Of a stretch of 64,000 bases of DNA, positions 20,655-38,385 are shown piece after piece (the first letter of the stretch is position 1; each line of letters begins with the position of its first letter). Under the pieces are notes generated by a model. It saw only the letters and a list, made by a program, of their open reading frames with translations, had not been told where the DNA came from and ran no database searches. The stretch is taken from IMG/VR virus record IMGVR_UViG_3300026290_000001; one strand, given 5' to 3'. The position numbers and the translations under genes are program-made. This DNA comes from a virus.

Positions 20655-20687
20655 AAAACAAAACAGAAGGGGAGTAGATACCCCTTC
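20655..20687 (-). terminator. intrinsic terminator-like hairpin after tape measure gene
   Basis: GC-rich stem GAAGGGG..CCCCTTC followed on minus strand by TGTTTTGTTTT. Confidence 0.45.
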
Positions 20688-23600
20688 TATTTACCAAGTT
20701 TACTCATTCCATTATTTATCCGTTTAAAGAAACCATCAACACCTTTTTCTGTGTTTTCTACTTTATCTATATGAACATTCATATTATAAGTTACGTTACC
20801 TCCACCAGCAAACTGTAATTGTGGAGTTGCATTGGCAATTAATTTTTGCATATTAGGAATTAGATATCTTTCAATATTTTTTGGTGGAATTAAAATTTCA
20901 TTTGTTAGTGCTTTGATTATATGTTCATTGGCACTGGTATTGAAAAATTTATTAAATTTATCAACAAAACCAAATGATTTATCTCCGACTATACCACCTT
21001 CATGATATATCCTAATTTGTCTTTTCTTTTCATCCCATTCTACTTGATGACCTAATGCTTCTGCAACTTCCCTGATAGAAAGATATGTTGTTCCGTCAAC
21101 ATTTTTAGCTGGTTTAAATCTCTTTCCACCAATTATAATTGTCTGGTTTTGTCCATAACCTTCCCAATCAGCAGATGCTCCTAAAAGTGATGCAAGAAGT
21201 CTAGATTGCATAATTGCTCTATTATTGACAAGTTCAAAAGAACCAGAATCCAATACTGCCATAGGTTGTCTACCAGATGTGTTAGAACTAGGATTAGTAC
21301 TTTCCAAAGAGGGAATAGACATATTCGCACTATTTGCACTTTCTAATAATGCTAATGCCTGTTCCATTTTTGTAATTAAATTAGCACTAATACTATTACC
21401 AATAAACTCTAAATTGCCATTTACAAAAGTTTTAAATTCTGCAAAAGCTGATTTAACTTTATCAATATTACCATTTATAATATCAGAACGAATTTGGGCA
21501 AACTTTTGTTCGTCATTAATTAAATCGTCATAGTGTTTTTCGGTTTCTCTTTTAATTCTATCCAACCTATCTTTTTCTAAGTTAAGTTTAGTATCTTCTG
21601 CTTTTTTCTTTGCATCAATATCTTTTTTATAAGCATCTAATTGGTCTTTAAGATTTTCTTTACGTAAATCAATTGAATGGTCATGTTGATATTCATTAAT
21701 TTCATCCTCTTGTTCTGCCAATTGTTTTATTAATTCTGCTTTTTTTGCTTTTGCTTCAAAAGAATCATCTAATGATAAAACGTCAATATTTTTTTGAGTT
21801 TCTAATATTGCTTTTTGTTTCTTTTCCAATTCACGATTATAATCATGCTCATTTTCTTCTCTATCTAGTGCTTTGATTCGTGCATTGATGTAATCTTCAA
21901 ATTGTTTTAATTCATCATCAAGATTATCAGTTGCTTGTTTATGACGTTTTTCTTCTGCTTTCATTTGTTCATCTATGGCATCTAATGCAACTTGTTTTTG
22001 TTTTTCATAGATATTTTTATAGATAGAGATGATTTCGTCTGCTATGGATGCTAGTTGTTGTTTGATAGAGAATTGGAGATTGATATATTCTTGCTTTAGT
22101 TGTTTTAAAGTATTTATCAATTCTTGTTTTTGGTCAGCATTGTATCTATCACTTGCTAATTCCTGTTGAACTAATGCTATTTTATTTCTTAAAATATTAA
22201 CACTTTCAATATTAATTTGATTTTCTCGTTCTAATAATGCAATATATTCAGCAGACCCTTTTTCTAATAAAGACATTTCATTTCTAAGGTTTTCTTTTTC
22301 TTGAGTTAAATCAGATAGTTTAATATCTTCAATTGATAAATTAATTTTAAATTCAGCAAAACTCAAATCTCTTATTTCATCATCTATACCTTGAATTTCT
22401 TTTTTAAGACCTTCTGCACTATCTTTGAGTTTTTTAAAATCTTCAATCGCTTTTGCAATTTTTTCATTCTTTATATCAACTTCAATTGTATCTGTTGAAC
22501 CAGACATTATTTTGTTAAAGTCAGATTCAGACAACCCTTTTCCAATATAAGACCGTAGATTCTGTTCTGCTTGTTTTAGACTTGAATCAAAAGTGTTATT
22601 TATATCTAAAAGCAGGTTTTGTTTTTTTTGTAATAAAAGTATCATTTGGTCATATATTTCTGTTTTTTGTTCAAAAGAAGTTACATCGTCAAGTTGATCT
22701 TTAAAAGTTTCTATTTCTCTGTTAATTGCTTCGAGTGCTTCTTTCCAAACTTCAAAGGTTTTGGTAAAGGATTTGGAGGATTTAGAGGAAGAACCATATC
22801 TATCTAAAGAACTAGATACATTAAGATTTTTAAACTTAGATGCCATATCTCTAGTGGCTTTTTGAAATTCAGCATAATCTTTAAGCATCTGGTTTGTTTT
22901 AGAATCAACAGCTAAAGCACTACCGCTTTCAATACGTCTAAAATCACCCATACTCGAAGGATTTACTAATAGCGTACCTGCATTAAAAGCATCAAAATAT
23001 TTCGCCCATTCAGAACCTAATTTGCTTATTAATTGCAATTCAATTGCTTCTCTTGCTTGAGCTAAATTTGCCCATTGAGTTACATTATTGCCATATAATT
23101 TTGATAAATGATTAAATAATTCAGCATGGTTATTTTTAACACTGTTATAGAAATTAATATCTTGTTCTTTAGTTTTTATAAAGGCATCATAAATTGCATT
23201 TTGGTAATCTTCTGTGTCTTTGACAAGTTGTTGTCTTAATTTGGACTCATCTTCAAGTAGAGGAATATAATCTTGATAATCAGATATTATTTTTTCTATT
23301 GAAGATTGAGTAAGACCTTTGTCAGATAATTCATCAAGAAAACCTTTTAGGTCTTTTATTTTAGATACATTGTCTTTGTAAGTGGTTTGAAAATCGGAGA
23401 GAGCTTTTTCATATTGATTTAAAGTATTAATCGCATTTTTTGAATCAATAGTAGAAGGATATAGTGATGCAAAATTAATAGCAAATTCTTTTAAATCGGG
23501 ATTACCTTTAGTTAATGTATTAATTAAATTAGTTATTTCCTTAGATGTTTTTGATAATCCATCTCTATTTTTCTTAGAATCATCGCCACTATTAATAGCA

Positions 23601-26600
23601 GAAGTTAATTTATTATATTGTTCAATTAAAGAATCTAAATCAGAATTAGCAACTTTAGTAGCAAAATCACTTAATGCTTGTTGTTGAGTTTCTATATCTT
23701 CGGGTTGTAAAGCAAGTGATTTAGCAAATTCGGAAACAACTAATTTGGCAGAATCAGACATTTCCTTACCATTAGATTCTAAAGTTTTAATGGTTTCTTG
23801 CGCTTCGTATTCTAAATATTTTTGTTTGTTTTTAGAAAGATTATATATTTCTTCTTGTTGTCTTTGATATATATCTTTCCAATCTTCTAATTTTCTGAGG
23901 TTATACCATTCAGTTCCTTTATTATTATCAATCATTAATTGATATTCTTCTATACGTTTTTCTGCGGTGTCTCTGAGGTTAATTGCTTTTTTAATTTCTT
24001 TATTAGTTTGTTTATCTGATGCTTTAACTTTAAATTCTAATAATTCCTGTTCTTTTTTTAATTCTTCATCTAAAGCCAAAATTCTTAGTTTAATTACTTC
24101 TATAGAATCAGAATAAGCTTCTCCTTCAAGATTAATACCAGTAGCAGATACACCATATTTATCAACAAGTTCTTTTTGAATTTCTAATAATCGTTTCTTT
24201 TCTTCGGTAGTTGCGGTAAGATTTTTCTCTTTATCTTTAAGAGTTTCATATTCAGAAGTTAATTCTTTTAACCCCTCTTTTTGTTGTTTTAAATTTTGTA
24301 TTTGATTTTGACTTGTTTCTATTTGTTTTTGTTGTTCTTCTCTATGTTTTTTAGTAGCATTAGTGAGTCCATAAATAGCAACCATTGCAGTTGTTGCAAC
24401 AACTGCCAATAATCCTAATGGATTTGTTGCCATCGTTGCTTTTAAAAAATTCATTGCAGCAGTAAGTCCTTGTGTTGTTGTCAATAATGCTAAAAGGGAA
24501 ATATTGGCAGCATTAGTAGTAGTAATGAATGCGATCATTGCTTTTATACTAGAAGTAATAGCAGTTCCTTTCCAAATTAAAAAAGCCGTAGTTAAAAGTG
24601 CTACAACAACTTCTGCATTTCCAAGAACTTCAACTAAAGTTGTCATAGCAATTACAAAACCTTTAATTACGTCAGAATTTAATGCTTCTTGCCATTTCCC
24701 CATTACTGTGTTTTTGAATTGTGCAGATTTTGCCTCAATTGATTCCATATACTTTTCGTTTTCAATTAAAGCAGAATTTGTCGAATTTAAGGCAGTAGTT
24801 AGAGAGTCCTGCATATCCTTGTAATTAGTCATCATAGCCATTACTATGTTTCCTTGTCTTTTTCCTGCGACAAGTTCCGACATATTAGCCCTCTGTACGT
24901 CTGTAAGTTTTTCCCAAACTAAGGCTAATTCTAACATAATGTCATAGGTGGATTTAAAGGTATTTTCATCTTTGCGAATTTGAATACCAATATTTTTAAA
25001 TGATTCTTCAAGTTTAGGAAGATATTCTAAAACATCTTCACCATCTTCGGATACACCTCTAAGTCTCATTGAAATTGTTTTGAGGGCTGTTCCTACGGTT
25101 GCTGGGTCTTGTACCACTGCGTTAGCAGCAGTTATCAATGCAACTGCTTCTTCCATTGTATTGCCAGCAGAATATAATGAAGCAGCAGATCTACGCATAG
25201 CTTCACCAATACCTGCACTTGAAATTGCAAAATTATTTCCAACTTCATTATAAATATCTACAATTTTCTGTATATTTCTACCTTCTTCATCTACTGCAAC
25301 ACCAAAACCTTTTACTGCTGAAATAATTGCTAGACTAGCTTCTTCTACTCCAATATCACCTACATTAGAATATAATAATGCTTGTTTTGCTAATTGAGCA
25401 GATTGTTCAAGGGAATAACCCAAACGGGCAAACTCTGTCGTACTATTAATAACTTCCACACTAGTTTTTGCCAAATTTCGACCTATAGCATTTGCCTCAA
25501 GTGAAAATTTATTTAATGTTTCTCTAGTTTCGTCAGTAACTTTATTCAAATTTGTGAGAGCAGTATCTATGTCGATGATACTTTGAATACCATTTTTTAC
25601 TGCTGTTATTGTTTTGATTATTACATCACCGATGAGCAACCAACTAGCGAATTTCTTGCCCGCTTCAAGTAAACTTTGTCCAAAAAGTCCAGTATATTTA
25701 TTAGCATCTTGAATTTCTTTCTTATAAATACTTGTGGTAGTAGAAATTTCTCTAAGTTTAGAATTGGCTTCTGCCATATTCTTACTGAAATTTTTATTAG
25801 TTGGATCAAAACCACGTATTTGAGATTCAAGAGTATTTAAAGCACTTAAATTATCACCAACAATAAACTTTCCATCTACACCTCTCATGCCCCTGATTCT
25901 ATTTAATAAATCTTGTTGAGCAAGAGATTGTTTATGTATTTCACTTGTTAACTTTTGCTGTTGAATAATATCTTTATCAATATTTTTTGCTTTTATTGTA
26001 CCAACATTCCGTAATGTTTGTTCTCTAATTTTTTCAAGTTGAATTAATTTTTCAGCTTCTATTCCTTCTATTTTGGTTTTTTCACCAATGTCAATTTTTC
26101 TTCTAATAATATTATTATATTGACCTTGATGATAGGTTATTTGTTTAGTTAATTCTTTTGCCTGTTCTGTATCTTTATTTCCTAAACTATGATAATCTTG
26201 TCTTAATTTATTTAATTGTGTTAAATGCTGTTTGGCTTCATTAAAATTTTTATTTTGTGTATTTTTAATAGTTTCTAAATTAGTTTTTTCAAGATTATCA
26301 TAATAATCTGCCATTTTAACCAGTTCATCTGGTTTCTTTGTCATATCACCTACAGTTTCTTTAACTCTCTGTGACCAATATTTGGACTGTTCTTTATTTA
26401 ATTTTTCTAACTCTGTACGTTGTTTTTTATAATTAATAGTAGTTTCTGTTACTTTTTTATATACTTCGTCTGTTCCTGCTTTTAAATGTTCAATTTGTTT
26501 TACACTCTCACCATTTGCTTTTGTCCACTCTTTAGTTCTTTCAGTAATTTTTGCTTCAGCATTTTCAATTTGTACATATTTTTCTTTATACTTGTCTAAA

Positions 26601-26731
26601 CCCTTACTATCAACATCAATTTTTATTTTAGGATTAACTCGTTGTTCAATATCTTTTTTTACTTTATTTAGTTCTGATTCTGATGCTCTATCTAATAACG
26701 TTTTTATTCGGATTACAATATCATCTGCCAC
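20687..26731 (-). CDS. tail tape measure protein
   Basis: 2014 aa, long coiled-coil regions, hydrophobic TM-like cluster in middle, C-terminal Cu_amine_oxidN1-like stretch (TYLSIREVAEALGHQVEWDEKKRQIRIY). Confidence 0.8.
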   Translation of the reverse strand: MADDIVIRIKTLLDRASESELNKVKKDIEQRVNPKIKIDVDSKGLDKYKEKYVQIENAEAKITERTKEWTKANGESVKQIEHLKAGTDEVYKKVTETTINYKKQRTELEKLNKEQSKYWSQRVKETVGDMTKKPDELVKMADYYDNLEKTNLETIKNTQNKNFNEAKQHLTQLNKLRQDYHSLGNKDTEQAKELTKQITYHQGQYNNIIRRKIDIGEKTKIEGIEAEKLIQLEKIREQTLRNVGTIKAKNIDKDIIQQQKLTSEIHKQSLAQQDLLNRIRGMRGVDGKFIVGDNLSALNTLESQIRGFDPTNKNFSKNMAEANSKLREISTTTSIYKKEIQDANKYTGLFGQSLLEAGKKFASWLLIGDVIIKTITAVKNGIQSIIDIDTALTNLNKVTDETRETLNKFSLEANAIGRNLAKTSVEVINSTTEFARLGYSLEQSAQLAKQALLYSNVGDIGVEEASLAIISAVKGFGVAVDEEGRNIQKIVDIYNEVGNNFAISSAGIGEAMRRSAASLYSAGNTMEEAVALITAANAVVQDPATVGTALKTISMRLRGVSEDGEDVLEYLPKLEESFKNIGIQIRKDENTFKSTYDIMLELALVWEKLTDVQRANMSELVAGKRQGNIVMAMMTNYKDMQDSLTTALNSTNSALIENEKYMESIEAKSAQFKNTVMGKWQEALNSDVIKGFVIAMTTLVEVLGNAEVVVALLTTAFLIWKGTAITSSIKAMIAFITTTNAANISLLALLTTTQGLTAAMNFLKATMATNPLGLLAVVATTAMVAIYGLTNATKKHREEQQKQIETSQNQIQNLKQQKEGLKELTSEYETLKDKEKNLTATTEEKKRLLEIQKELVDKYGVSATGINLEGEAYSDSIEVIKLRILALDEELKKEQELLEFKVKASDKQTNKEIKKAINLRDTAEKRIEEYQLMIDNNKGTEWYNLRKLEDWKDIYQRQQEEIYNLSKNKQKYLEYEAQETIKTLESNGKEMSDSAKLVVSEFAKSLALQPEDIETQQQALSDFATKVANSDLDSLIEQYNKLTSAINSGDDSKKNRDGLSKTSKEITNLINTLTKGNPDLKEFAINFASLYPSTIDSKNAINTLNQYEKALSDFQTTYKDNVSKIKDLKGFLDELSDKGLTQSSIEKIISDYQDYIPLLEDESKLRQQLVKDTEDYQNAIYDAFIKTKEQDINFYNSVKNNHAELFNHLSKLYGNNVTQWANLAQAREAIELQLISKLGSEWAKYFDAFNAGTLLVNPSSMGDFRRIESGSALAVDSKTNQMLKDYAEFQKATRDMASKFKNLNVSSSLDRYGSSSKSSKSFTKTFEVWKEALEAINREIETFKDQLDDVTSFEQKTEIYDQMILLLQKKQNLLLDINNTFDSSLKQAEQNLRSYIGKGLSESDFNKIMSGSTDTIEVDIKNEKIAKAIEDFKKLKDSAEGLKKEIQGIDDEIRDLSFAEFKINLSIEDIKLSDLTQEKENLRNEMSLLEKGSAEYIALLERENQINIESVNILRNKIALVQQELASDRYNADQKQELINTLKQLKQEYINLQFSIKQQLASIADEIISIYKNIYEKQKQVALDAIDEQMKAEEKRHKQATDNLDDELKQFEDYINARIKALDREENEHDYNRELEKKQKAILETQKNIDVLSLDDSFEAKAKKAELIKQLAEQEDEINEYQHDHSIDLRKENLKDQLDAYKKDIDAKKKAEDTKLNLEKDRLDRIKRETEKHYDDLINDEQKFAQIRSDIINGNIDKVKSAFAEFKTFVNGNLEFIGNSISANLITKMEQALALLESANSANMSIPSLESTNPSSNTSGRQPMAVLDSGSFELVNNRAIMQSRLLASLLGASADWEGYGQNQTIIIGGKRFKPAKNVDGTTYLSIREVAEALGHQVEWDEKKRQIRIYHEGGIVGDKSFGFVDKFNKFFNTSANEHIIKALTNEILIPPKNIERYLIPNMQKLIANATPQLQFAGGGNVTYNMNVHIDKVENTEKGVDGFFKRINNGMSKLGK

Positions 26732-26845
26732 ATATATCCACTCCTTTCTTTACAAATTTAAAAATAGGCAACAAAAAAGAAGTGGATATAATAATCTCAC
26801 TTCTAAAAATTCAAACTATTAAAATTATTAAATTTTAAATTATAT

Positions 26846-27091
26846 CTAAGTAATCATTCCATGAAACAATCCACCAACCTTAACTTTTCTACCATCTTTC
26901 AATTTAATATACACAATCTTACAGCACATTCTATATCGCAACATACTCTGAGCATATGATCTAGGTGGAGGTGGAGCTAGATATGATTCTTTCCAATGCT
27001 TGTATTCATATTCAATAATTTCATCTTTGTATTTTTCAACTAATTGATTTAATGCTTGTTTATTAGTTTTGTCTGTAGGCATAATAATCAC
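26846..27091 (-). CDS. hypothetical protein
   Basis: 81-aa ORF adjacent to integrase. Confidence 0.3.
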   Translation of the reverse strand: MIIMPTDKTNKQALNQLVEKYKDEIIEYEYKHWKESYLAPPPPRSYAQSMLRYRMCCKIVYIKLKDGRKVKVGGLFHGMIT

Positions 27092-27163
27092 TTCCTTTTG
27101 ATTGTATGATTATATTATATGCGAAAAGGGGAGTGAAAATTAAGATAAAATGAAGTTTCTATC

Positions 27164-28201
27164 TTACAAATCACTTAAAGATTTATTTTCTACTTGTTTA
27201 ATCCCATCTTCATCAAAATACTTACCTAATTCCTCATCTATCTCAGTGTCATTATATAATGACACCATATTCGTACTCTCCCAGCCAACTACATCTTTAA
27301 TTACATCTGCTGGAATATTTGCTTGGCAAAGTGCGGTTGTAAAATAATGTCTATTTGAATGCCAATACCAATCTATACCTAAAATATTAGAAAAAGTTAT
27401 TGCCCAAGAATTTAATAAAGATATAGTGCCTGGTTTCCATACACTATTTCTTTTATTCCAAAATAACTCTTCCCCTTCAATGCCTAATTCTTCACGTTGC
27501 TTCATCCATAAATCAAAATAAGGTTTAAATTTAGAAACCAAGATATACCTATAAATCATTTTACCCTTAGAACTTCTACCCTTTGTTTTTATCTTTTCAG
27601 GAGTTTTATATAAAGCACCGTATTTAATATTTTCTTCTGTAAAATGACTTACTTTAAACCTTAATAATTCTGCCTTTCTTGATCCACTACTTACTGCCAA
27701 TGCAACTGCACATGCTTGTTGATATTTGCCTTTTTCAACTAAATAATTAAGCAATTCGTCAACTTGTTCATCTGCAAGGACAGTTTTATCCCTAACATTT
27801 ACTTTTACTGGTGCAGGGATTTTATTAACTATATTGCGAAAATTAGGGTGAATGTCATCTAGCATTGCCTCTATATAATTAGACATACTACTAATTGCTG
27901 ACTTCAATCTTCTTACTCTATTAGGACTAAGATTTTGTGTATTCACAAGCCAATTCTGATATTTTAAAATATCACGTTTAGTAAAATCTATAAAAAATTT
28001 ATTATCATTATATTGTAAATTCCATACCCAACAAATTTCAATATCATTTTCATAACCTTTTATAGTGGCATGAGACATATCTTTCCCTCTGCAATAATCT
28101 AAAAATTCATTAAGTAAATCTTTATTTTCTTTTGAAACTCGTTTCCACAATTCAGGAGTTACAATTGTATGTTGTTCGGTTTTCCTTGCGATTATAATCA
28201 C
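27164..28201 (-). CDS. tyrosine integrase (phage integrase family)
   Basis: Catalytic region ...SSGSRKAEL..., HSNRHYFTTAL, conserved Tyr in LYND near C-terminus; N-terminal core-binding-like domain. Confidence 0.75.
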   Translation of the reverse strand: MIIIARKTEQHTIVTPELWKRVSKENKDLLNEFLDYCRGKDMSHATIKGYENDIEICWVWNLQYNDNKFFIDFTKRDILKYQNWLVNTQNLSPNRVRRLKSAISSMSNYIEAMLDDIHPNFRNIVNKIPAPVKVNVRDKTVLADEQVDELLNYLVEKGKYQQACAVALAVSSGSRKAELLRFKVSHFTEENIKYGALYKTPEKIKTKGRSSKGKMIYRYILVSKFKPYFDLWMKQREELGIEGEELFWNKRNSVWKPGTISLLNSWAITFSNILGIDWYWHSNRHYFTTALCQANIPADVIKDVVGWESTNMVSLYNDTEIDEELGKYFDEDGIKQVENKSLSDL

Positions 28202-28263
28202 TTCCTTATGTTCTATATAATAAAATAGGGCAAGGGATAGATAAAAACATCTACCACTTACCC

Positions 28264-28776
28264 TTACACAACATCTATACCTCTAGTTTTTAAAGCACTT
28301 TTCATCGTTTGAACATGTAACCCTTTACTTCCAATTTCTTCTCGTGTATTCTTAATAAATGGTCTTGGTTTGCTCCAAGGATCATTCCCATATCCAAATT
28401 CTATATTATGTGCCAAACTTTCACCTAAATCAACACCACCATATCCACCATGATTGTATGCAAATGAATGATTAAAATCGGCATTATCAACAACTTCAAG
28501 TACTCCATCTTCAATTAAATGAGAATTCATTTGTCCTGTATCCCCAAGACCGAGTGAACCTTCAATAAAACCTCTACGTTTATACATAACTGGATTAGGA
28601 TATTTATCATAAACATCTGTTTTTACATGATCTGAAATTTTATCTTTAACCATTTCAGACATTTCTTTTTGAAGTGAAGAATTAACTTGTTGTGTAATAT
28701 ACTGCTCAAGTTGTTTTAAACTACTAAAGCTTTTACCCAATTTCCTCACCTTCACTTTGATTGCCATTTGCAACAT
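28264..28776 (-). CDS. hypothetical protein (head-tail region)
   Basis: 170-aa ORF in structural operon. Confidence 0.3.
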   Translation of the reverse strand: MLQMAIKVKVRKLGKSFSSLKQLEQYITQQVNSSLQKEMSEMVKDKISDHVKTDVYDKYPNPVMYKRRGFIEGSLGLGDTGQMNSHLIEDGVLEVVDNADFNHSFAYNHGGYGGVDLGESLAHNIEFGYGNDPWSKPRPFIKNTREEIGSKGLHVQTMKSALKTRGIDVV

Positions 28777-29371
28777 TCCACATATCCTTCAACATAGGTA
28801 ATTTATCCCAATCTAATTTATTTATATCTTTTACTAAACTTTTACTGAGACTTTTTATTTGCTTATCTGTGGGGAGTTTTTCAACCACTTTATCTAATTT
28901 ACTTGCCAATATTCCCTCAATACTATTATTTAACTTTATAATCTGAGTAAGTTCACAATCCACCAAATCCAATATAAATTCAACTTCAGTTATTGGTATT
29001 TGATTTAAAATCCTTTCTATCCCCACATTCTCACAAAGATAATCATAATCTTCAATAAGATTTTCTGAGAACTCGATATTAGTGTAATTCACCAATAATG
29101 AAACATCACTGGTTAATTTTTTATAAAAGTAATCTATTTTGCTTAAACCATTAATTTCATCTAAGACAATACAACTATCTATAATTTTATTTACTATTAA
29201 ATTTTTTTCTATAATGGATAAATACTGTTTAACTTCAAGCAGATCATCTACGAATTTACCTGCTTCAATTTGTTCTTTTATTTCTTGAACTAACATATTA
29301 AATACCTCCAATATATTTATTTTAATAATATATAAAAATCTCTGTGCGAGGCCACTCTTTGTCATAGCCAC
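28733..29371 (-). CDS. hypothetical protein
   Basis: 212-aa ORF in structural operon. Confidence 0.3.
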   Translation of the reverse strand: MAMTKSGLAQRFLYIIKINILEVFNMLVQEIKEQIEAGKFVDDLLEVKQYLSIIEKNLIVNKIIDSCIVLDEINGLSKIDYFYKKLTSDVSLLVNYTNIEFSENLIEDYDYLCENVGIERILNQIPITEVEFILDLVDCELTQIIKLNNSIEGILASKLDKVVEKLPTDKQIKSLSKSLVKDINKLDWDKLPMLKDMWNVANGNQSEGEEIG

Positions 29372-29768
29372 ATTTCAAAGTTAAACTTGTTAAATGTAAA
29401 GAATCATCATCAATTATTAATCCTGATTCAGCAATACCGTCTAAAATAAATTTAGGGACAGTATTGTCACAATCTTTACGGATTTTGGTTTTGAAGTAAC
29501 TAACAAATGTCATTTCACACTGTTCTATTTTTTTATTTGTAAGTTTGTTTTCTTCTACAAACCAGATTATGAAATCTTTCCATTTTTGTTTTAAATCATT
29601 CATTTGAGGACGTTTCATTATCATCCATTTATTGATAGATGGATGAGTAGGTTTATCAATAGGAATTTTTTTACGTTTTGGATATTTAGCAAAATAATAT
29701 TTATTGTATTTTTCTAAAACATTATTATCTATAATTAGTTTTATTTCTGAAATAATAAATTCCTCCAA
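29322..29768 (-). CDS. hypothetical protein
   Basis: 148-aa ORF in structural operon. Confidence 0.3.
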   Translation of the reverse strand: MEEFIISEIKLIIDNNVLEKYNKYYFAKYPKRKKIPIDKPTHPSINKWMIMKRPQMNDLKQKWKDFIIWFVEENKLTNKKIEQCEMTFVSYFKTKIRKDCDNTVPKFILDGIAESGLIIDDDSLHLTSLTLKCGYDKEWPRTEIFIYY

Positions 29769-29830
29769 ACAAAAAGAGAGATTATTTATAATTTCTAACC
29801 CCTCTTTATATATTAATTTATATTGTTGTT

Positions 29831-30793
29831 TTAAAACACCACATAACTCACACCACTACCAACAATTGCATCTTCACTACCACCAGCAAACGGTACTGGT
29901 TCACTTAAAATATCTAATGGGAAACCTGCTTGATAAGTACCAACCACAAATAATGCTGCTAATTCAGGGGTATTATTAATTATACTTTCTACATTACCTG
30001 GCATTATCTGGTCTGGATCGCCATCAACATTAGTAGGAGAAGTAATTGTTAATAAATTATTAGCAAAACCAACAGTCCCTTGTTGACTTATTCCCGTACC
30101 AGCAACTAATATCACCGAATAATCATTTCCACTTACACCTGCTGTTTTACAATTAATTACCATAGAACCACCTGTTGAACCTGTTACAGTTACACTTGCT
30201 GGAATGGCAAGTTGAGTATCAGCAAATCCTATAGTATCACCAATGGAAGATGTTATTGTTCTTATATATTCAGTGTTATCTACACTGAATTTTATTGTTT
30301 TTGTGTTAAGCGAATCTAATTCAAAATTTTTAGTTGAATCTATTAATGTTGAAGTTGTTCCTATAGAAGTAGATGTACCATGAAGAAGTGCAGTTTGAAT
30401 GGGAGTAGTTATGGTTGCGTTTAGATTAGTAGGGATATTGGTTATTAAACTTGCTCCTACATCAACTACACGACCTGTAATTTTTAATGTTCCTCCACTA
30501 ACGGCAGATACTCGACATCTTACTCCTGCAAAATGTGCTAAATCTATGACGAAAACCTGATTGGCATTACCTGTGACAGATGTAGCAATTGTTAATTCTG
30601 GTAATTTAACAGCAGGAATAGGAAACCAATTAGGTGTAGATGAACCATCACAACCTTCAAAATGTACAGTATAATTAGCCGAACTAATAATATAAACCGC
30701 CATTTGATTGTTTCTACCTGTTTTAAAAGTTACTCCATTACCTGTAGTTGTTACATTATCTTGGAAAATCCAAGAGTTTGTTTGTACGTTCAT
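29831..30793 (-). CDS. putative major tail structural protein
   Basis: 320 aa, Thr/Gly/Ser-rich beta-type composition; preceded by strong RBS AAGGAGG and an unusual CA-rich leader. Confidence 0.35.
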   Translation of the reverse strand: MNVQTNSWIFQDNVTTTGNGVTFKTGRNNQMAVYIISSANYTVHFEGCDGSSTPNWFPIPAVKLPELTIATSVTGNANQVFVIDLAHFAGVRCRVSAVSGGTLKITGRVVDVGASLITNIPTNLNATITTPIQTALLHGTSTSIGTTSTLIDSTKNFELDSLNTKTIKFSVDNTEYIRTITSSIGDTIGFADTQLAIPASVTVTGSTGGSMVINCKTAGVSGNDYSVILVAGTGISQQGTVGFANNLLTITSPTNVDGDPDQIMPGNVESIINNTPELAALFVVGTYQAGFPLDILSEPVPFAGGSEDAIVGSGVSYVVF

Positions 30794-30960
30794 TTTATTT
30801 GCCTCCTTTTGATTTATGGATTTATGTTGTTTTGAGTGGTTGGTTGATTGATTGGTTAGTTAGTTGGTTGATTTGATTGGTTGAATGATAGTTGATTTGA
30901 TTTGATTTGATTGTTATTTGAGTGATAGTTGAAAGGTTAATAAAATAGGGTAGATACTGT
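30794..30960 (-). promoter_or_regulatory. CA-rich, G-free 5' leader with CAA/CAAT repeats upstream of 29831-30793
   Basis: Plus strand contains essentially only G/T/A (minus strand transcript C/A/U only) with tandem (CAA/CAAAT)n-like repeats. Confidence 0.4.
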
Positions 30961-30982
30961 AGGAATGTATCTACCCATGTGA

Positions 30983-31273
30983 TTATTTTTGTGGAATAAT
31001 TTTGTCAAATGTTTTCATTGTTTCTTTTATTGTTTCTTTTACCATTTCCTTTTCTTCTGAAAAATCTACATCAACCCAATCGCAATTTTGGGGAGAAAAA
31101 AGCATTTGAATATACCAGATATCCGAGTCTTTAACATGTTCCATATAATTACCATCTGTAAAATAAAAACCTTTTTTATCTTTACCTATGGTGTAGATTC
31201 TATCCATATAAAGACCAGGGGGTGGGGCGGCAGGACAAGTATAAGTTAATTTAACTTCATTGTATTTCATCAT
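30983..31273 (-). CDS. hypothetical protein
   Basis: 96-aa ORF; followed downstream by hairpin GGGTAGATAC..GTATCTACCC plus T-run. Confidence 0.3.
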   Translation of the reverse strand: MMKYNEVKLTYTCPAAPPPGLYMDRIYTIGKDKKGFYFTDGNYMEHVKDSDIWYIQMLFSPQNCDWVDVDFSEEKEMVKETIKETMKTFDKIIPQK

Positions 31274-31339
31274 TTCGGAATCACCTCTTTTAAATTATAG
31301 GAGATTATGTAAAGACATAACCTCCTATAAAAACTATAA

Positions 31340-32095
31340 TTAAACTTCTACATAATGCATCATATCACCAGTTGAATCAGCGAGAATATCCCATTCAATC
31401 GATAATCTTGCTACGTTATCTGCGTCCATAGTAAGAGATACATTAGATTTTGGCTTAACATTTAATAATTGATACTGTACAAATGTATCAACCTGATTTG
31501 TTCCACGAACAGCACTATCAGCATAAATAGTATAACCACCAGGGAAACTTACATTATCAACGGTAAATGTATTATGAGTTCCTTCTAACATATAATAACA
31601 TACTACTTTTCCTGCGGTTGAAAATGTAGTCGGATTAAAAGTTAAGGCTTTATCTGTTATAGAATACTTATCTTCAGCACTTGCTGGAGTTCCTGCTGTT
31701 TGTTCAGCGTCATGGGTAATACCATCACTATTTAATTTAAAAATAACTAGACTACCAGCTTTGGGAAGTTCAGTTAATGATGCACCTCCACCACCGGCTT
31801 GAACATTTAAAACTTCACGTTTTGCTACAGGCATAGTTTTATTAGACATAGTTGTTCCGAAGAGCAAAGATAACCATTTAAGTTCAAAAACTTCCATCTC
31901 TGTCTTAAATGTACCCTCTCTCTGTTTATCCCATCTAATAGCTTTTGTAGTCTTATTGTAAGCATAAACGGAATCAGCAGTAAAATCTATTGAACTTGTT
32001 TTGGCGTAATCAGCATAAAGAACTGGTTTTAATCCACCACCAGCAACTTGTTCATATACATGAAGATTGGCCGCATCTTTAATACCATATAGCAT
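31340..32095 (-). CDS. putative tail structural protein
   Basis: 251 aa, beta-rich composition, position in tail morphogenesis block. Confidence 0.3.
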   Translation of the reverse strand: MLYGIKDAANLHVYEQVAGGGLKPVLYADYAKTSSIDFTADSVYAYNKTTKAIRWDKQREGTFKTEMEVFELKWLSLLFGTTMSNKTMPVAKREVLNVQAGGGGASLTELPKAGSLVIFKLNSDGITHDAEQTAGTPASAEDKYSITDKALTFNPTTFSTAGKVVCYYMLEGTHNTFTVDNVSFPGGYTIYADSAVRGTNQVDTFVQYQLLNVKPKSNVSLTMDADNVARLSIEWDILADSTGDMMHYVEV

Positions 32096-32165
32096 ATTAT
32101 AAATTCCTCCTTTAATTATTTTTGTTTAATAAAAAGAGTAGATAATAGAAATCCAATCCTTACAT

Positions 32166-32885
32166 CTATTCTTTATATTGATAATTTAACTTTAATAAAT
32201 CAGTCCAATGTTTATTTTCAATTAATGATTTTTCACCACTAACTAAATAGATTCTAAAATGATCATTATAAGTACTAATTCCCATTATCGAACTATAGCA
32301 ATTTATTATTCTCCAAATAGTCCACTTTTTTATTTCTTCAATCGGAATATAACTTCTCCCACCAAACTCACAATAGTTTATTATATCTTCTAATTTAACC
32401 TCATTATTTTTAGCATTTCTACGTCTACCTTCTTGAAGTTTTTCCCATATATCTCTTTGTCTATCATTTTTAAATACAGGTTTTTTCTCTTTTACTGGTC
32501 TTTCCCTACCACATATTTTTAATATAATCTCGGCAAATTCATCAAAATTATTTTTATTCAATCTACCTTTAAACCCATCAAAAAAAATACCTTGTTCATC
32601 AACATCGAATTTATTCTTACAGAAAAACTCTAAAGATAAAAATAAGAAACTTACAACATCCTGTGAACTACACAATAAATCAAAAGTGTTTAATCCTTCT
32701 TTTTCTTCCTCTGTTATCTCATCATCAAATAAACTATCAACTGTTATATAATAGGGAAGTAGTAACTTCTCAAATTCTTCAAGACGATAATCTAATATTT
32801 CTTCAAAACTTGGTTGATAAATCATACAAATATCATAAAAAGGAATTGGTTTCTGTAATTTAAGATAAAGATTTAAATTTTCCAT
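32166..32885 (-). CDS. hypothetical protein
   Basis: 239-aa ORF. Confidence 0.3.
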   Translation of the reverse strand: MENLNLYLKLQKPIPFYDICMIYQPSFEEILDYRLEEFEKLLLPYYITVDSLFDDEITEEEKEGLNTFDLLCSSQDVVSFLFLSLEFFCKNKFDVDEQGIFFDGFKGRLNKNNFDEFAEIILKICGRERPVKEKKPVFKNDRQRDIWEKLQEGRRRNAKNNEVKLEDIINYCEFGGRSYIPIEEIKKWTIWRIINCYSSIMGISTYNDHFRIYLVSGEKSLIENKHWTDLLKLNYQYKE

Positions 32886-32899
32886 ATTCTCACTTACTT

Positions 32900-33376
32900 T
32901 TATTGAAATTCCGTAGACCTGTACCCAATATATGCACCTGAATAATAATCATTTACAGAAAAATCTGCCATATCATAAAATTCTAATTTCCCTAAACCAA
33001 TATCTCTTGAATAATTCATTAATTCATCAATCTGATTTATTAAGAAATCATACCTTAAAAAACCATGATCTGTTTTAATCAAAGAATTATGAGAAATCAC
33101 GTAAAAATAAATAGATCCATTTTTATAAGACATACCTTTTGCTCTATAATTAAAAGATGTTGTTATGAATGTTTTAGGTGTTGTTTCAATAGTGGGTATG
33201 TACTTGTATGGATATATATTTTCGTAAATTAAACTACTGGCATCGAAATCTTCTGGTAAAGGTATATCTAAAAAATTAGATTCATTATTAACCAAGCATT
33301 TTACAATTTCTTGATCTTCAATTAATTTTGAAAGAATAATATATTTATTTGTACTAAGTTCAGCAAATCGTCCCAT
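32900..33376 (-). CDS. hypothetical protein
   Basis: 158-aa ORF. Confidence 0.3.
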   Translation of the reverse strand: MGRFAELSTNKYIILSKLIEDQEIVKCLVNNESNFLDIPLPEDFDASSLIYENIYPYKYIPTIETTPKTFITTSFNYRAKGMSYKNGSIYFYVISHNSLIKTDHGFLRYDFLINQIDELMNYSRDIGLGKLEFYDMADFSVNDYYSGAYIGYRSTEFQ

Positions 33377-33393
33377 TAGATACCCCCCTTTAC

Positions 33394-34566
33394 CTAAAAT
33401 AAATTCCTTATCATAATTCTAAATGCTGGTGTTACAAGACTTCCGCTTTCATTCCTTGCAAAAAGCTTTACATATCCAATAGTACTTCCAGCAGTTATCA
33501 CACAACTATCAGTATCATAACTTGATATAGTTGCTAAATTTGTATTACTCACACCATCATCACTTTTTAGATAAAATAGCATATCTCCAGGCACAATAAT
33601 TCCATTATCACGAACAATACAATTATAATTAGATGATTTACCTTTTATAATTGAATCACTTCCAATAATTTCTGCTGTAATATTGTGTTGGACTTCTTCA
33701 ACCACGGTTACGGTAATACTATCACTTACCCCATTGGCACTTGCAGTTATTGTACAACCACCTGTTTTTATAGCAGTTACCAAACCTGTACTGCTAACTG
33801 TGCAAATTCCTTCGTTTGAACTGATATAGGATAGGGCAGGGGAGGGAGATAATAAAAATTCATTATCATATACATTTACATTAAGTTGAAGGGTATCACC
33901 ATCTTGAAGATTTATGGTTGATCCGTTAAGGATTTCTATAGTGTAAGTGTGAGTTATAACTTCTTCAATGCAATATTCCATTTTTAATACTATTAGACCA
34001 GGCATGACTAAACGATTTATATCAATAACTCTATAATTATCATTTGATATAGAAAATACTTCGCCACGTTCAATCAAAGAAGTTATATTATCATTTTTAA
34101 TATAAACAATAATACTTGACTCAGGTATTGTTAAATATTTATTACTGTTATATCCCATTGAATATAAACGAACATTACCATCTATTACAACGGGATAATT
34201 ATATACAGTATTGTTTTTGTTTAAAGTTATATTTTGTGATGATAAATAAACTGTCCCAAATTCATAAACTGGATTAGTATCATCTATTCCAATGCACAAC
34301 CATGTTTTATTATCAAAAACAATTTTGTCCCCAACACTGATACTATCACCAGGTTTCATTAATACTTTTTTAATAAAATAATCATCAGTATCAATTACTT
34401 GTATGTCAGTTGTAAATATTGAATCATTAAAATATGCTGAACGATAGGATGGATTACTACTAAAATCTTTTGTTATAGAATTTTTCATATAATCAATTTG
34501 CCTATCGTTTATAGTATAACCATTGATTTTCAATTTTCGTTCATATAAATCCCAATTTGTAGTCAA
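33394..34566 (-). CDS. structural protein with bacterial Ig-like (Big_2-like) domain
   Basis: C-terminal region ...GICTVSSTGLVTAIKTGGCTITASANGVSDSITVTVV resembles Big_2 Ig-like domains. Confidence 0.4.
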   Translation of the reverse strand: MTTNWDLYERKLKINGYTINDRQIDYMKNSITKDFSSNPSYRSAYFNDSIFTTDIQVIDTDDYFIKKVLMKPGDSISVGDKIVFDNKTWLCIGIDDTNPVYEFGTVYLSSQNITLNKNNTVYNYPVVIDGNVRLYSMGYNSNKYLTIPESSIIVYIKNDNITSLIERGEVFSISNDNYRVIDINRLVMPGLIVLKMEYCIEEVITHTYTIEILNGSTINLQDGDTLQLNVNVYDNEFLLSPSPALSYISSNEGICTVSSTGLVTAIKTGGCTITASANGVSDSITVTVVEEVQHNITAEIIGSDSIIKGKSSNYNCIVRDNGIIVPGDMLFYLKSDDGVSNTNLATISSYDTDSCVITAGSTIGYVKLFARNESGSLVTPAFRIMIRNLF

Positions 34567-34590
34567 TAATCCACCCCCTTTTCATTTATT

Positions 34591-35124
34591 TTAATAAGCC
34601 TCAGGAATAAACTTTTTCCAAACAACTGTCGATTCAGAACCTTCTTTTTCACACCAGTAGTAATGTGGTGAAGCATAAACTACCACATTTCTCAACATAC
34701 TTGGAGTACCTAAAGAACCACTGGATAGTTTTTCTACATCATCTCCCCAAGATGCATTAGTGCAGTCTTCCGCAACTGCAACATCATTTCCGTCAGTACC
34801 TATAGTTTTATATTCAACCACAACAGTATCATCTTCTTTAGATGCTACAGCAGTTACTAATACAGAATTAGCATTTATAGCTTTTGCCAATTCTTCAACT
34901 GCCTTATCTGCTGTTAAAGTTTCTCCTAAAACAACTGCAATGTTTCCTTCTTGAGCATTCTCAGCAGCAACAACAAATTCATAAATTTCCGTTCCTCCGA
35001 TAGTAACTGTTTCTGCTACTACGGGAATTCCTTTAAAAGTAAGAGTAGCAGTAGCCTTGTGTGGATTTGTTGGGTGTTCTTCGCTAAACCATTTCTCCTG
35101 CAATTGCAAAGTTCCATATGCCAA
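34591..35124 (-). CDS. hypothetical head/neck protein
   Basis: 177-aa ORF, Ala/Val/Glu-rich. Confidence 0.3.
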   Translation of the reverse strand: MAYGTLQLQEKWFSEEHPTNPHKATATLTFKGIPVVAETVTIGGTEIYEFVVAAENAQEGNIAVVLGETLTADKAVEELAKAINANSVLVTAVASKEDDTVVVEYKTIGTDGNDVAVAEDCTNASWGDDVEKLSSGSLGTPSMLRNVVVYASPHYYWCEKEGSESTVVWKKFIPEAY

Positions 35125-35149
35125 AATTAATTACCTCCTTTTCTTTATA

Positions 35150-35190
35150 AATAAAAAGGAGAGGGAAGGTTATTATCCTTCAAATTCTCC
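35150..35190 (-). terminator. terminator-like hairpin (repeated element, second copy at 39373-39404)
   Basis: GGAGAGGGAAGG..CCTTC..TCTCC stem followed by T-run on minus strand. Confidence 0.35.
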
Positions 35191-35193
35191 TAG

Positions 35194-35514
35194 CTAGTTA
35201 TATTTATTTATCAATTTCTTAATAATATTAATACTCTTAAATACTTCTCGTTTTATCTCACTATGAGAATATTGATTTTCAGACAACGCTTGCAATGTTG
35301 CTATTAAAGATAAAAAACTAGCATCTTTTTTTAACTTCAAAATCAAATCCTTACTGCCCGTCAACTCAAGAATAAGACTATCCAAATATGATTTTAAAGT
35401 TTCTGGTTCTGACTCACTTATTGGAAGGATTTTGTACACACGACCAATCAAGAAATTCAGATAATTTAGAAAGAATTCATTGTCAATAATATTATCAATA
35501 TGTACTTTAACCAT
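35194..35514 (-). CDS. hypothetical protein
   Basis: 106-aa ORF. Confidence 0.3.
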   Translation of the reverse strand: MVKVHIDNIIDNEFFLNYLNFLIGRVYKILPISESEPETLKSYLDSLILELTGSKDLILKLKKDASFLSLIATLQALSENQYSHSEIKREVFKSINIIKKLINKYN

Positions 35515-35969
35515 TATGAATCACCATAGGTATATAAAGTATAATCTACTATCATCCTTGAAATCTCTTTATCTAGTTCTTGTGCTAAAACCGTAAGTCT
35601 CAATAAATGTTCTGCCTGGGACGTTAATTTGAAATCCTTCGTTGTCATCCTTTGTTGCAATAATTCAAGATTATAAATCTTATCATTCAACCAATATTTT
35701 CTCATTATTGTAGCAAGAATTAATTTTTCTTCTTCTGTAAGAGTTTCATTAAATTTACCTTCAATTGCTTCTCCAGTTTCACTTTCATCTTCACTAACTG
35801 GTTCAACCCTATCATTTAAATCTTTCTCACATGCTTTAAACCTTGTTATTGCCTTTAATAGTAATCCGTGTAAAATATCATCTCTTTCAGATTCCGTAAA
35901 ATCTAAAAGAGAATCATCTTTTATATCACTAAGAAACATATTATATATTTCAGAATATAGTGAGGACAT
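35514..35969 (-). CDS. hypothetical protein
   Basis: 151-aa ORF. Confidence 0.3.
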   Translation of the reverse strand: MSSLYSEIYNMFLSDIKDDSLLDFTESERDDILHGLLLKAITRFKACEKDLNDRVEPVSEDESETGEAIEGKFNETLTEEEKLILATIMRKYWLNDKIYNLELLQQRMTTKDFKLTSQAEHLLRLTVLAQELDKEISRMIVDYTLYTYGDS

Positions 35970-35983
35970 TATCTTTGCCCCCT

Positions 35984-36736
35984 TTATTTAATGTTGATAA
36001 AATTGTCAACAGGTTTACCTTCAGGTTGTAAAAGAATATCCAATTCAATACCCATTGATTCTTCGATATAATTCTTTATTTTAATAGAATCCAATTCACC
36101 ACTTTTAATCATTTTTGCCGCTTGTTCGACCACTGAATTCTTATATCCACTAGGTAATTTATCAAACTTTTTCTTAAATGAATTAAAATCAAGTCTTAAA
36201 ATATCAGATACATTATTCAATCCAAGAATTTCTTCATAATGTTTGAAAATGTTTGCATATTTCAAAATTTCAATTTCATCATCTTCTATTACTCTAATCC
36301 AAGGCTCTCGTATAAATCTTGAGTCAGTATTTTTAAGATCAATAAATTCACCAAGTTCTATATTATTTGTATCTCCAGGGTTTTCCCAAACAATTTTATA
36401 ACCAATTTTACGTTTGGATTTATAAATCAATCTACCACTGGATATATTTTTTAAGCAAATCATACGATTAAGATCTGGTTTCCAAGGTTCTTCTTTTGGT
36501 TGGATATTTTTTTTAGATGTTTGAGAAGGTTTAGATTCAAGTTGGGAAGTATCGGTATTCAATTCTAAACTTTTTTTAATTCCTTCTACCTGTTCATCAT
36601 CTAGTTTAGTCATGTGACTTTTTACTTCATATCCTAAATCTTGTGCTGTTTCAATAATCTTTTTATTCTCAATATCTAGTTCCTTTGCCAATTCAAATAC
36701 TTTCATATTAAAATTTACTCCTCTCATTCTTTGCAA
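35984..36736 (-). CDS. hypothetical protein
   Basis: 250-aa ORF. Confidence 0.3.
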   Translation of the reverse strand: MQRMRGVNFNMKVFELAKELDIENKKIIETAQDLGYEVKSHMTKLDDEQVEGIKKSLELNTDTSQLESKPSQTSKKNIQPKEEPWKPDLNRMICLKNISSGRLIYKSKRKIGYKIVWENPGDTNNIELGEFIDLKNTDSRFIREPWIRVIEDDEIEILKYANIFKHYEEILGLNNVSDILRLDFNSFKKKFDKLPSGYKNSVVEQAAKMIKSGELDSIKIKNYIEESMGIELDILLQPEGKPVDNFINIK

Positions 36737-36761
36737 TTAAAAAGAGGGGATTAACCCCTCT
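36733..36761 (-). terminator. intrinsic terminator after putative major capsid gene
   Basis: Stem AGAGGGG-ttaa-CCCCTCT followed on minus strand by TTTTTAATT. Confidence 0.5.
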
Positions 36762-36802
36762 AAATAATTACTATAAAATTATATTGATAATTTATAATTT
36801 AA

Positions 36803-37801
36803 TTAGTCAGATATTTGATATCTGCCATAAAGGTCAGTAATTACAATACCAGTACCGTACCGAGTAGCTGCAAAGTAATCTTGGGTCAAATCTTGGTTGG
36901 CAAGTGCATCACCACTGATAATTCTCATTTCACCTTCGGTTACAAATTTTACAGGTTTTGCATCAACGGATACTATATAAAGATCACTTTCAGAAAGTTT
37001 GAAATTATATGTACCAACGGTGTGAACCTGTTTGATTCTCATCATAGGAGTACCATTAAAGTTACCATAATAACCCATTTTGTACATATCATCTTTTGCA
37101 GCATCAGCTATAATAGCAGTAGTTACTTTCCGTAGTGCTTTTCTAGTTCCTGCAATCATGGCAGATTTGCCAGTGGCGGCTTCAACGTGTTCAATTACAT
37201 CAAGTAAATCTTCTTCATCAAAAGAACCATTGTCGGTGAATCCAGCAGGTAAACCAGAGAAAGCACCAGTGAAAGCGGTGTAAATATCATCGTTAATTTT
37301 CAGTTTGAAAGCCTTATCTAATGCTTCAAGCATTTCGTTAAAGTCTACACGTCCGGCGAGTAAACGAGAAAGATGTTCGTATATTTTGATGCCTTTCCAA
37401 GAGGTGGTGATAGAAACATTAGTTCCAACATCTAAACGCTGTCTACGTAGAGATTGAGTTCCATCGGCAATTTCTGAAATTACCAACATGGTGCGGTCTG
37501 GCGCATAGAAACTATTCTGATCACCAAGGGCAAGGTTCTTATATTCCACAAAATTTTCAAAGAAATTATCATCAGGAAGTCCTTCAAGGACAGTGTTTTG
37601 AAGAATCTCTTCTAATATTTCAAACATTGCTACGCCATTTCTACGGAATGATTTATAATCCAATTTGGTAGAACCACCATTGAGTTCTATAAAATGTTGG
37701 CGCAATGCCTCTGTTGCATCGGATTTACTAAATTTATCATGTGAAAATTTATTTTTATAAATATCTTTCGCTAATTTTACCAAAGTTTTATTATCTTCCA
37801 T
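36803..37801 (-). CDS. putative major capsid protein
   Basis: 332 aa, position downstream of portal/protease block, strong RBS, followed by strong terminator. Confidence 0.45.
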   Translation of the reverse strand: MEDNKTLVKLAKDIYKNKFSHDKFSKSDATEALRQHFIELNGGSTKLDYKSFRRNGVAMFEILEEILQNTVLEGLPDDNFFENFVEYKNLALGDQNSFYAPDRTMLVISEIADGTQSLRRQRLDVGTNVSITTSWKGIKIYEHLSRLLAGRVDFNEMLEALDKAFKLKINDDIYTAFTGAFSGLPAGFTDNGSFDEEDLLDVIEHVEAATGKSAMIAGTRKALRKVTTAIIADAAKDDMYKMGYYGNFNGTPMMRIKQVHTVGTYNFKLSESDLYIVSVDAKPVKFVTEGEMRIISGDALANQDLTQDYFAATRYGTGIVITDLYGRYQISD

Positions 37802-38369: not shown

Positions 38370-38385
38370 ATTATAAATTCCTCCT

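Follow-up and report, generated by a model that had tools for sequence, protein, structure and literature searches.

A conserved tyrosine recombinase gene upstream of the tape-measure gene in a large uncultured phage

RESULTS

The recombinase gene and its setting

The DNA analyzed here is a 64,000-nucleotide stretch of viral sequence (IMG/VR record IMGVR_UViG_3300026290_000001; the window, below), and the subject is a tyrosine recombinase gene on its minus strand at positions 27164 to 28201, called the focal gene. The window has a G+C content of about 28%, and its minus strand carries nearly all genes from 2.5 to 60.6 kb. The initial annotation had described an integrase lying between the tape-measure gene and the head-tail genes, and this arrangement is real. 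The product of 27164-28201 (345 amino acids [aa] as listed, about 342 aa from the likely start) matches PF00589 and PHROG families. The gene of the tape-measure protein (20687-26731, minus strand; 2014 aa, PF10145), which is homologous to the tape-measure proteins of phages Tsamsa and PK-3, lies downstream, and the head/tube genes lie upstream on the same strand (28264-42708). The upstream genes encode YomN-like, RusA-like, tube-like, and Ig-domain proteins, the capsid, the portal, and the large terminase. Between the recombinase and the tape-measure gene is a small open reading frame (ORF; 26846-27091, minus strand; 81 aa as listed, 78 aa from the ATG at 27082), which has no match in Pfam or PHROG; it has homologues in two of the related loci, which are given L numbers here (L009, 75%; L032, 53%), and is absent in Tsamsa.

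The window is a piece of a large uncultured phage genome of 99.6 kb. L008, a 21-kb stretch of a 99,574-bp IMG/VR viral contig, matches it at 100% identity, and two further stretches, one from the 99.6-kb contig and one from a 64,930-bp contig, do so at 99.97 to 99.99%. A prophage with host flanks was ruled out by the match to viral contigs and by the window ends, which code for dNMP kinase, the nucleotidase NT5C, and RadC.

Domain organization and catalytic residues

The focal recombinase consists of a core-binding domain (about residues 29 to 106) and a catalytic domain (about residues 141 to 319). It matches PF00589 with an E value of 3.4e-14 (53.4 bits against a cut-off of 27.1), the SAM-like core-binding domain PF13495 over residues 29 to 106 (E 2.8e-10), and phrog_1, “integrase” (E 1.6e-35). 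The catalytic residues are R175, K207, H281, R284, W307, and Y316, and the six positions, with W or H at 307, are invariant in a 22-sequence alignment that covers identities from 29 to 81%. Judged by this complete R-K-H-R-W-Y set, the enzyme looks catalytically intact. The AlphaFold2 model (predicted local distance difference test score, 81.8) adopts a two-domain Xer/Cre fold, and the top Foldseek matches, XerA, IntI4, XerH, the lambda Int core, and Cre, were all obtained with a probability of 1.00. The stretch ahead of the core-binding domain is only about 28 residues long and is disordered in the model; neither the Pfam scan nor the predicted fold contains an arm-binding domain. The modeled protein is a simple two-domain enzyme of the Xer/Cre type that lacks such a domain. 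It falls below all Xer equivalog cut-offs (NF040815, 46.8 against 220 bits; TIGR02224, 38.6 against 335; TIGR02225, 31.5 against 330; NF003462, 25.2 against 267), and the NCBIfam invertase models have no match to it. The focal gene has no ATG start, and the Shine-Dalgarno spacing implies an ATA or ATC start (28194-28210, minus strand). A non-ATG start is also found in two homologues, P0001 (“MITIARK”) and P0074 (“VIIIPRK”), with ATG in most others.

Homologues and gene order

A megablast search of cultured phages with 20 kb around the focal gene gave no match, and the homologues in cultured phages were found at the protein level by tblastn. The focal protein matched 168 cultured-phage records, all of them Firmicutes phages of about 75 to 170 kb from the host genera Bacillus, Staphylococcus, Lactococcus, Lactobacillus, Enterococcus, Geobacillus, and Clostridioides. 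The E values were 7e-26 for PK-3 and FADO, 8e-25 for Tsamsa, 2e-16 for phi3T, and 7e-12 for Lactococcus phage 949; those against the recombinases of the Tyroviruses ranged from 1e-24 to 7e-26, and query coverage was 76 to 93% for named members. A protein search with the focal recombinase returned 2135 proteins at an E value of at most 1e-5, the best 120 of which are 57 to 93% identical to it.

In Tsamsa, PK-3, phi3T (where it is annotated as the equivalent of SPbeta yomM), and Lactococcus phage 949 (ORF131), the recombinase homologue precedes the tape-measure gene. The portal, capsid, tube-like, recombinase, tape-measure, Dit, and Tal genes of the window are collinear with those of Tsamsa and PK-3 at 24 to 38% identity. 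To survey the position more widely, a census was made of 75 classifiable non-redundant loci drawn from IMG/VR contigs, bacterial genome contigs, and cultured-phage records. In 44 of the 75, the recombinase homologue is followed by a tape-measure gene or giant ORF that begins within 6.5 kb of it, and this position recurs in homologues of as little as 23 to 30% identity. This placement ahead of the tape-measure gene, in the same orientation as the late genes, is the commonest one of the recombinase family, and the earlier description of it as unusual does not hold. From sequence and gene order, we assign the focal gene as the syntenic orthologue of Tsamsa gp227, Thrax gp50, SPbeta YomM, 949 ORF131, and Perkons ORF195, the late-module recombinases of large, long-tailed Firmicutes siphophages.

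Age and constraint of the recombinase gene

The G+C content of the focal gene is 0.29, the same as that of its neighbors. At four-fold degenerate sites, identity to the orthologues equals the base-composition expectation in nearly all comparisons, that is, these sites are saturated, and despite this the amino acid identity to the same orthologues is 50 to 81%. The recombinase is more similar to that of the window than the capsid is in 19 of the 23 loci with both genes (for instance, 66% versus 26% in L018 and 68% versus 27% in L032). Nucleotide similarity between loci is often confined to the recombinase ORF; because the four-fold degenerate sites are saturated, this pattern reflects purifying selection and not recent transfer. 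Recent horizontal transfer as the source of the high recombinase identity was rejected on the same grounds.

In a search for short direct repeats around 26750-28260, a check proposed in the initial annotation, the only one found was the 14-nt sequence AAGGAAGTGATTAT at 27084-27097 and 28194-28207 (exact over 14 nt, 20 nt with two mismatches, spacing 1110 bp). It corresponds to the extended Shine-Dalgarno sequence and spacer of the recombinase and of the next ORF, and a third near-copy lies at 14920-14933, ahead of another region. As the shared ribosome-binding site of two adjacent genes, the repeat was rejected as an att site or target-site duplication. By these sequence features, the focal recombinase is an old, strongly constrained, vertically inherited phage gene and not the integrase of a nested element; we hold its family membership and its exclusion as a nested element with high confidence.

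A palindrome at the stop codon and hairpins at both ends of the gene

A palindrome (27132-27175) overlaps the stop codon of the recombinase gene and may be either a core-type recombination site or a 3′ RNA hairpin. Its inner part, at 27141-27166, reads TAAGATAGAA-ACTTCA-TTTTATCTTA, with 10-nt arms that contain one mismatch and a 6-bp spacer, and it is extended by an outer AGTGA/TCACT pair. Folded as RNA, the palindrome reaches −13.5 kcal/mol (z = −4.85), a value attained by none of 200 shuffled sequences. It occurs once in the window (up to three mismatches allowed) and once in the 99.6-kb contig (exact match). The same kind of site is present at the same place in Tsamsa (15-6-15) and PK-3 (13-6-13), both larger than that of the window, and the site at the Tyrovirus stop codon is single-copy in each genome and 81 to 100% conserved. 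The stop-codon palindrome can be regarded as a candidate recombination site of the focal enzyme.

At the other end of the gene, a terminator-like hairpin with a T-rich tail (28216-28264, minus strand; −21.3 kcal/mol, z = −3.6) lies between the YomN-like gene and the recombinase. Of 85 non-redundant related loci, 36 have such a hairpin in the 220 nt ahead of the recombinase start, versus 14% of random windows, an enrichment of about three-fold that is found in all position classes, which suggests that an upstream terminator-like hairpin often insulates the recombinase from upstream transcription. A second terminator-like hairpin is located in the leader of the tape-measure gene (26733-26826, minus strand; −26.7 kcal/mol, z = −4.05). 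It is formed by AGAAGTGAGAT and ATCCACTTCT and followed by six T residues, and its 3′ arm is able to pair instead with the ribosome-binding site of the tape-measure gene (AAAGGAGTGGAT). This arrangement is kept in L009 at 86% DNA identity, and the leader element may control tape-measure expression.

Neighboring genes upstream

The gene directly upstream of the recombinase (28264-28776, minus strand) encodes a YomN-like tail-module protein (phrog_19892). Its tblastn matches adjoin the recombinase homologue in phi3T, L020, L032, L115, and L128, and in L003 this slot holds a Pfam YomN match. Inside the tail module, 1.1 kb upstream of the recombinase, is a RusA-like Holliday-junction resolvase gene (29322-29768, minus strand; phrog_1682, E 7.9e-14, and phrog_34). 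L003/4, L005-7, L023, L027, L029, L032, L089, L106, and L117 likewise carry such a gene no more than about 3 kb from the recombinase homologue, and this association recurs across different recombinase position classes.

The other recombinases of the window

Further recombinases at 5113-6117 and 59714-60592 and a fragment at 2055-2390 had been reported, and all of them were confirmed by PF00589 matches or by six-frame translation and tblastn. The gene at 5113-6117 (minus strand, 334 aa; PF00589, E 3e-41) lies between the tail-fibre genes and the lysis cassette. Its product scores 229.7 bits with NCBIfam NF040815, above the cut-off of 220, and is 34 to 38% identical to integrases of Clostridium, Terrisporobacter, and C. 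scindens phages; by these matches it is the most integrase-like of the three full-length recombinases and the best candidate in the window for a lysogeny integrase. The gene at 59714-60592 (minus strand, 292 aa; PF00589, E 8.8e-38) encodes an XerC/D-like protein that scores 180 to 194 bits with the XerD, XerC, and XerA models, all under their cut-offs, and shares about 30% identity with the “xerC” genes of large C. difficile phages. Pairwise identity among the three full-length recombinases is at most 30%, and those at 5113-6117 and 59714-60592 are paralogous lineages separate from the focal recombinase. In a related contig (L020, IMGVR_UViG_3300025030_000046), the structural module holds two tyrosine recombinase genes, at 4917-5909 and 10001-11032, and a homologue of the 5113-6117 recombinase (46%) is located 5 kb upstream of the focal-recombinase homologue.

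The fragment at 2055-2390 (plus strand) is a C-terminal remnant, of about 111 aa, of a fourth tyrosine recombinase, recognized from the ORF list, six-frame translation, and tblastn. It retains the motifs HDLRHTF...LGHS...IYTH, has neither the N-terminal part nor a start codon, and matches the 59714 recombinase with an E value of 1.25e-4 and the 5113 recombinase with 0.01. The remnant is co-oriented with the NT5C and dNMP-kinase genes; it marks a decayed gene in the slot, at the convergent end of the late region, that members of the focal family occupy in SEP9, VPE25, L005, and L029. The initial annotation had regarded this recombinase load as unusually high. Three or four recombinases are, in fact, a described trait of this phage group: the “Tyroviruses” take their name from three conserved tyrosine recombinases, of which gp50 precedes the tape-measure gene at a location called “especially curious” (PMC9703825); Tsamsa has three tyrosine recombinases (PMC3903500); Perkons and E3 have four integrases each (PMC13245101); and a Staphylococcus SPbeta-like phage has three recombinases (PMC6507118).

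The 20-bp palindrome AATCCCAATATATAGGSATT is present on the plus strand at 2448-2467, 58 nt 3′ of the remnant, and again in direct orientation at 5033-5052, 61 nt 3′ of the 5113-6117 recombinase. These are exactly two copies in the window, compared with 0.04 expected by chance. The palindrome has a 6-8-6 architecture with arms extendable to about 9 to 11 nt; the two copies bracket the 2.6-kb lysis (holin/amidase) cassette, and a second small hairpin in inverted orientation stands beside each (2481-2511, 5065-5095). When the pair was sought in other phages, it was found, with the same 2585-bp spacing, only in contigs of the window's own phage. The two copies may be recombination sites, or an att scar or other scar of past recombination.

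Mobile genes and further features of the window

An IscB RNA-guided nuclease gene (13105-14397, minus strand; NCBIfam guided_IscB, 351 bits against a cut-off of 175) lies in the tail-fibre region together with its HEARO/omega RNA (14475-14685, minus strand; Rfam RF02033, 121.7 bits against a gathering score of 83). A homologue of this IscB (67%) directly follows the copy of the focal recombinase in L126. An HNH homing-endonuclease-like gene (38386-39366, minus strand; phrog_559, E 1.1e-39, and phrog_9084) is located in the head module, and its homologues are often near the recombinase in relatives (L018, L022, L100, L116, L119, and L121); a second HNH endonuclease gene lies at 58603-59526 (minus strand). 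The suggestion of nested mobile elements is borne out by these genes, IscB with its HEARO RNA and the HNH genes, and is contradicted for the focal gene by its synteny, G+C content, and saturated sites. A mosaic history, likewise proposed, is supported for the window as a whole by IscB, the HNH genes, the decayed integrase at 2055-2390, the duplicated AATCCCAATATATAGGSATT, and the variable recombinase slot, and not for the focal gene as an insertion.

A motif of about 30 nt (TATTTATATTAATAAAATAAT on the plus strand) recurs at least eight times in the window (12398-12429, 37810-37841, 48005-48039, 55025-55056, 55426-55457, 56220-56251, 58557-58601, and 59545-59576). In the cases examined, it directly precedes the ribosome-binding site of minus-strand genes, including the capsid gene, and it is probably a phage-specific promoter or leader. 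A tRNA-Thr (UGU) gene is found at 47256-47331 (minus strand), between the replication and packaging regions. On the plus strand, about 1 kb at approximately 61450-62400 is nearly free of C (GC skew, +0.5) and has no long ORF; an Rfam search of the C-poor region from 60.5 to 63.3 kb gave no family, even at an E value of 0.1. In the region 55413-57031, the tandem paralogous genes 55455-56204 and 56249-57034 share 74 to 91% DNA identity, and a small ORF occurs in two copies near 62.6 and 63.0 kb (62573-63111; 160 nt, 90% identity).

DISCUSSION

Comparison with known systems

The closest described counterparts of the focal gene are gp50 of the Tyroviruses (Thrax1-5) and gp227 of Tsamsa, from Bacillus phages of 160 to 170 kb (PMC9703825, PMC3903500). 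They share about 30% identity over 90% of the length (E about 1e-25), the slot directly before a giant tape-measure gene, a collinear head-tail module, and three distinct tyrosine recombinases. A palindrome with a 6-bp spacer stands at the stop codon in these phages, and the window has a shorter, statistically weaker candidate there. The window differs in several respects: its phage is of about 100 kb and low G+C, and the closest protein relatives belong mostly to Clostridia-type genomes and metagenomes; the focal protein has a conserved C-terminal tail of about 25 residues (..DDELGKYFDEDGIKQVE.KSLSDL) absent from the Tyrovirus homologues, and its second His position is occupied by W rather than H; and the stretch separating the tube genes from the recombinase holds more accessory genes (the RusA-like gene and ORFs of 320 and 212 aa). 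YomM of SPbeta and phi3T (28% identity, E 2e-16) likewise follows a YomN-like gene, precedes the tape-measure gene yomI, and is internal to the prophage. However, phi3T has small ORFs and transposase genes between recombinase and tape-measure gene, and SPbeta integrates by a serine integrase, none being shown in the window. The homologues in phage 949 (ORF131), the SEP9/6ec group, and VPE25 belong to the same family at 22 to 28% identity and are co-oriented with the late genes. In 949 the gene is directly upstream of the tape-measure gene, whereas in SEP9 (Staphylococcus) and VPE25 (Enterococcus) it comes after the endolysin, at the convergent end of the late genes, a slot that in the window holds only the 2055-2390 remnant.

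Among site-specific systems, XerS/difSL, XerH/difH, XerA/dif, and P1 Cre/loxP resemble the focal recombinase in being based on two-domain enzymes, and XerA and XerH are its closest solved structures. One palindromic site (arms of about 10 to 11 bp, spacer of 6 bp), single-copy per replicon, may adjoin the recombinase gene as in these systems. Unlike the Xer proteins, the focal protein stays far below the Xer cut-off (46.8 versus 220 bits), and its gene lies in a phage late operon.

Alternative explanations

It is conceivable, and in our assessment unlikely, that the focal gene is the lysogeny integrase of the phage, with the downstream palindrome as attP, in which case integration would split the late operon between the tube and tape-measure genes. 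An attP with 11-bp inverted repeats and a 6-bp core has been proposed right after the stop codon of gp50 (PMC9703825), comparable palindromes stand at the stop codon in the window, Tsamsa, and PK-3, and the terminator-like hairpins that often bracket the gene would make expression independent of the late operon possible. However, in a 4.7-Mb chromosomal contig of Cytobacillus gottheilii (L110) the homologue has yomY-to-yomO-like genes upstream and the tape-measure gene downstream; since structural genes lie on both sides, it is internal to the integrated SPbeta-like prophage. SPbeta and most of its relatives integrate by serine integrases (10.1101/2021.11.22.469490), and integration of Perkons was mapped by experiment to the serine integrase ORF165, although this phage also carries the gp227 homologue ORF195 (PMC13245101). 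The focal recombinase is therefore probably not a lysogeny integrase. The family is also present in 949, SEP9, and VPE25, and no lysogeny functions are predicted in the SEP9/6ec group (PMC6507118); the focal protein has no arm-binding domain, and the window holds a better candidate at 5113-6117. We consider it highly improbable that the enzyme is a DNA invertase or excisionase switching a phage segment, such as tail or host-range genes. Tyrosine invertases of similar size exist (FimB/E, Rci) and the focal gene adjoins tail genes, but the adjacent palindrome has no second copy in the window, even with three mismatches allowed, or, by exact match, in the 99.6-kb contig, which also makes the invertible or excisable segment of the initial annotation unlikely. 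Moreover, no significant long inverted repeats surround the tail genes, the Tyrovirus site is single-copy, and the invertase models do not match.

In the sense of the nested mobile elements suggested by the initial annotation, the recombinase gene, with or without the 81-aa ORF, could be a self-contained mobile cassette within the late operon. An exact 14-nt direct repeat does bracket the gene at 1110-bp spacing, the recombinase slot varies among related phages, DNA-level similarity between loci often begins and ends at the ORF edges, and recombinase and capsid identities are uncorrelated. We nevertheless regard a cassette as very unlikely, as the repeat is made of two ribosome-binding regions with a near-copy elsewhere, purifying selection at saturated four-fold sites explains the ORF-limited similarity, the G+C content equals that of the flanks, the pre-tape-measure position recurs among distant homologues, and no empty-site relative was found. 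Alternatively, the protein might have lost its recombination activity and serve as a DNA-binding regulator or an assembly factor. The SPbeta repressor MrpR/YopR has a tyrosine-recombinase fold and represses without recombining DNA (PMC10516654), and the focal gene lies in the region usual for tail chaperone genes. All six catalytic positions, the nucleophile Tyr and the beta-hairpin Lys among them, are invariant down to 29% identity, which is hard to explain without catalysis, and we judge a purely binding role to be quite improbable.

Proposed function

The explanation that we favor, with moderate confidence, is that the focal gene encodes an orthologous, resident recombinase of the late module with a proposed role in Cre/Xer-like DNA processing. 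A specific lox/dif-like mechanism can be put forward only tentatively. The recombinase would act as a homomeric enzyme on the single palindromic core-type site beside its own gene (TAAGATAGAA-N6-TTTTATCTTA), a layout that would parallel Cre/loxP and single-recombinase Xer/dif modules. Its task would be the intermolecular or multimer-resolving recombination, or the circularization, of replicated phage DNA; its expression would be low, with activity late in infection or in a plasmid-like state, and the RusA-like junction resolvase of the same island would work alongside it.

Several observations weigh against this explanation. The stop-codon palindrome is statistically weak, in that 6% of random 95-nt windows score equally, and most homologous loci at 50 to 80% identity, including L003 and L015 (73 to 80%), have no such palindrome; counts of 10- to 12-mers near the gene in relatives with a recombinase at least 58% identical returned only ribosome-binding-site-like and coding words. 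The site assignment may consequently be wrong, and the palindrome could be only an RNA hairpin. The position of the gene is not fixed: the homologue lies just ahead of the terminase and portal genes in 13 of the 75 loci and elsewhere, mostly at the end of the late genes (as in SEP9 and VPE25), in 18. The lack of an ATG start could mean low or lost expression in the phage of the window. Resolution of multimers to monomers has no obvious benefit for a phage that packages from concatemers, and the role of the late-module recombinases is called unclear in both PMC9703825 and PMC6507118, with a function assigned by experiment to no member.

Implications for the phage family

Catalytically intact tyrosine recombinases embedded in the tail operon have been noted repeatedly in SPbeta-, Tsamsa-, and 949-like phages and in staphylococcal phages, and the window extends the set to an uncultured phage of low G+C. 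Comparison of the loci constrains the function: the gene is ancient, is under stronger constraint than the capsid in most relatives, does not lie at a prophage junction, and often has a terminator-like hairpin upstream. For annotation, genes of this kind alone are no basis for calling a phage temperate or for placing prophage boundaries. A broader proposal, which we offer as a speculation of rather low probability, is that the family is a deeply conserved recombinase of large long-tailed Firmicutes siphophages that acts late in infection on one lox/dif-like site per genome and is possibly important for lytic growth, through conversion of replication products to a packageable form, through circularization of incoming DNA, or as a fixed crossover point between the head and tail-tip modules. 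If this last possibility were true, the fixed crossover would drive the exchange of whole modules between co-infecting phages; the stronger conservation of the recombinase relative to the capsid, and the lack of correlation between its identity and that of its flanks, would then be accounted for.

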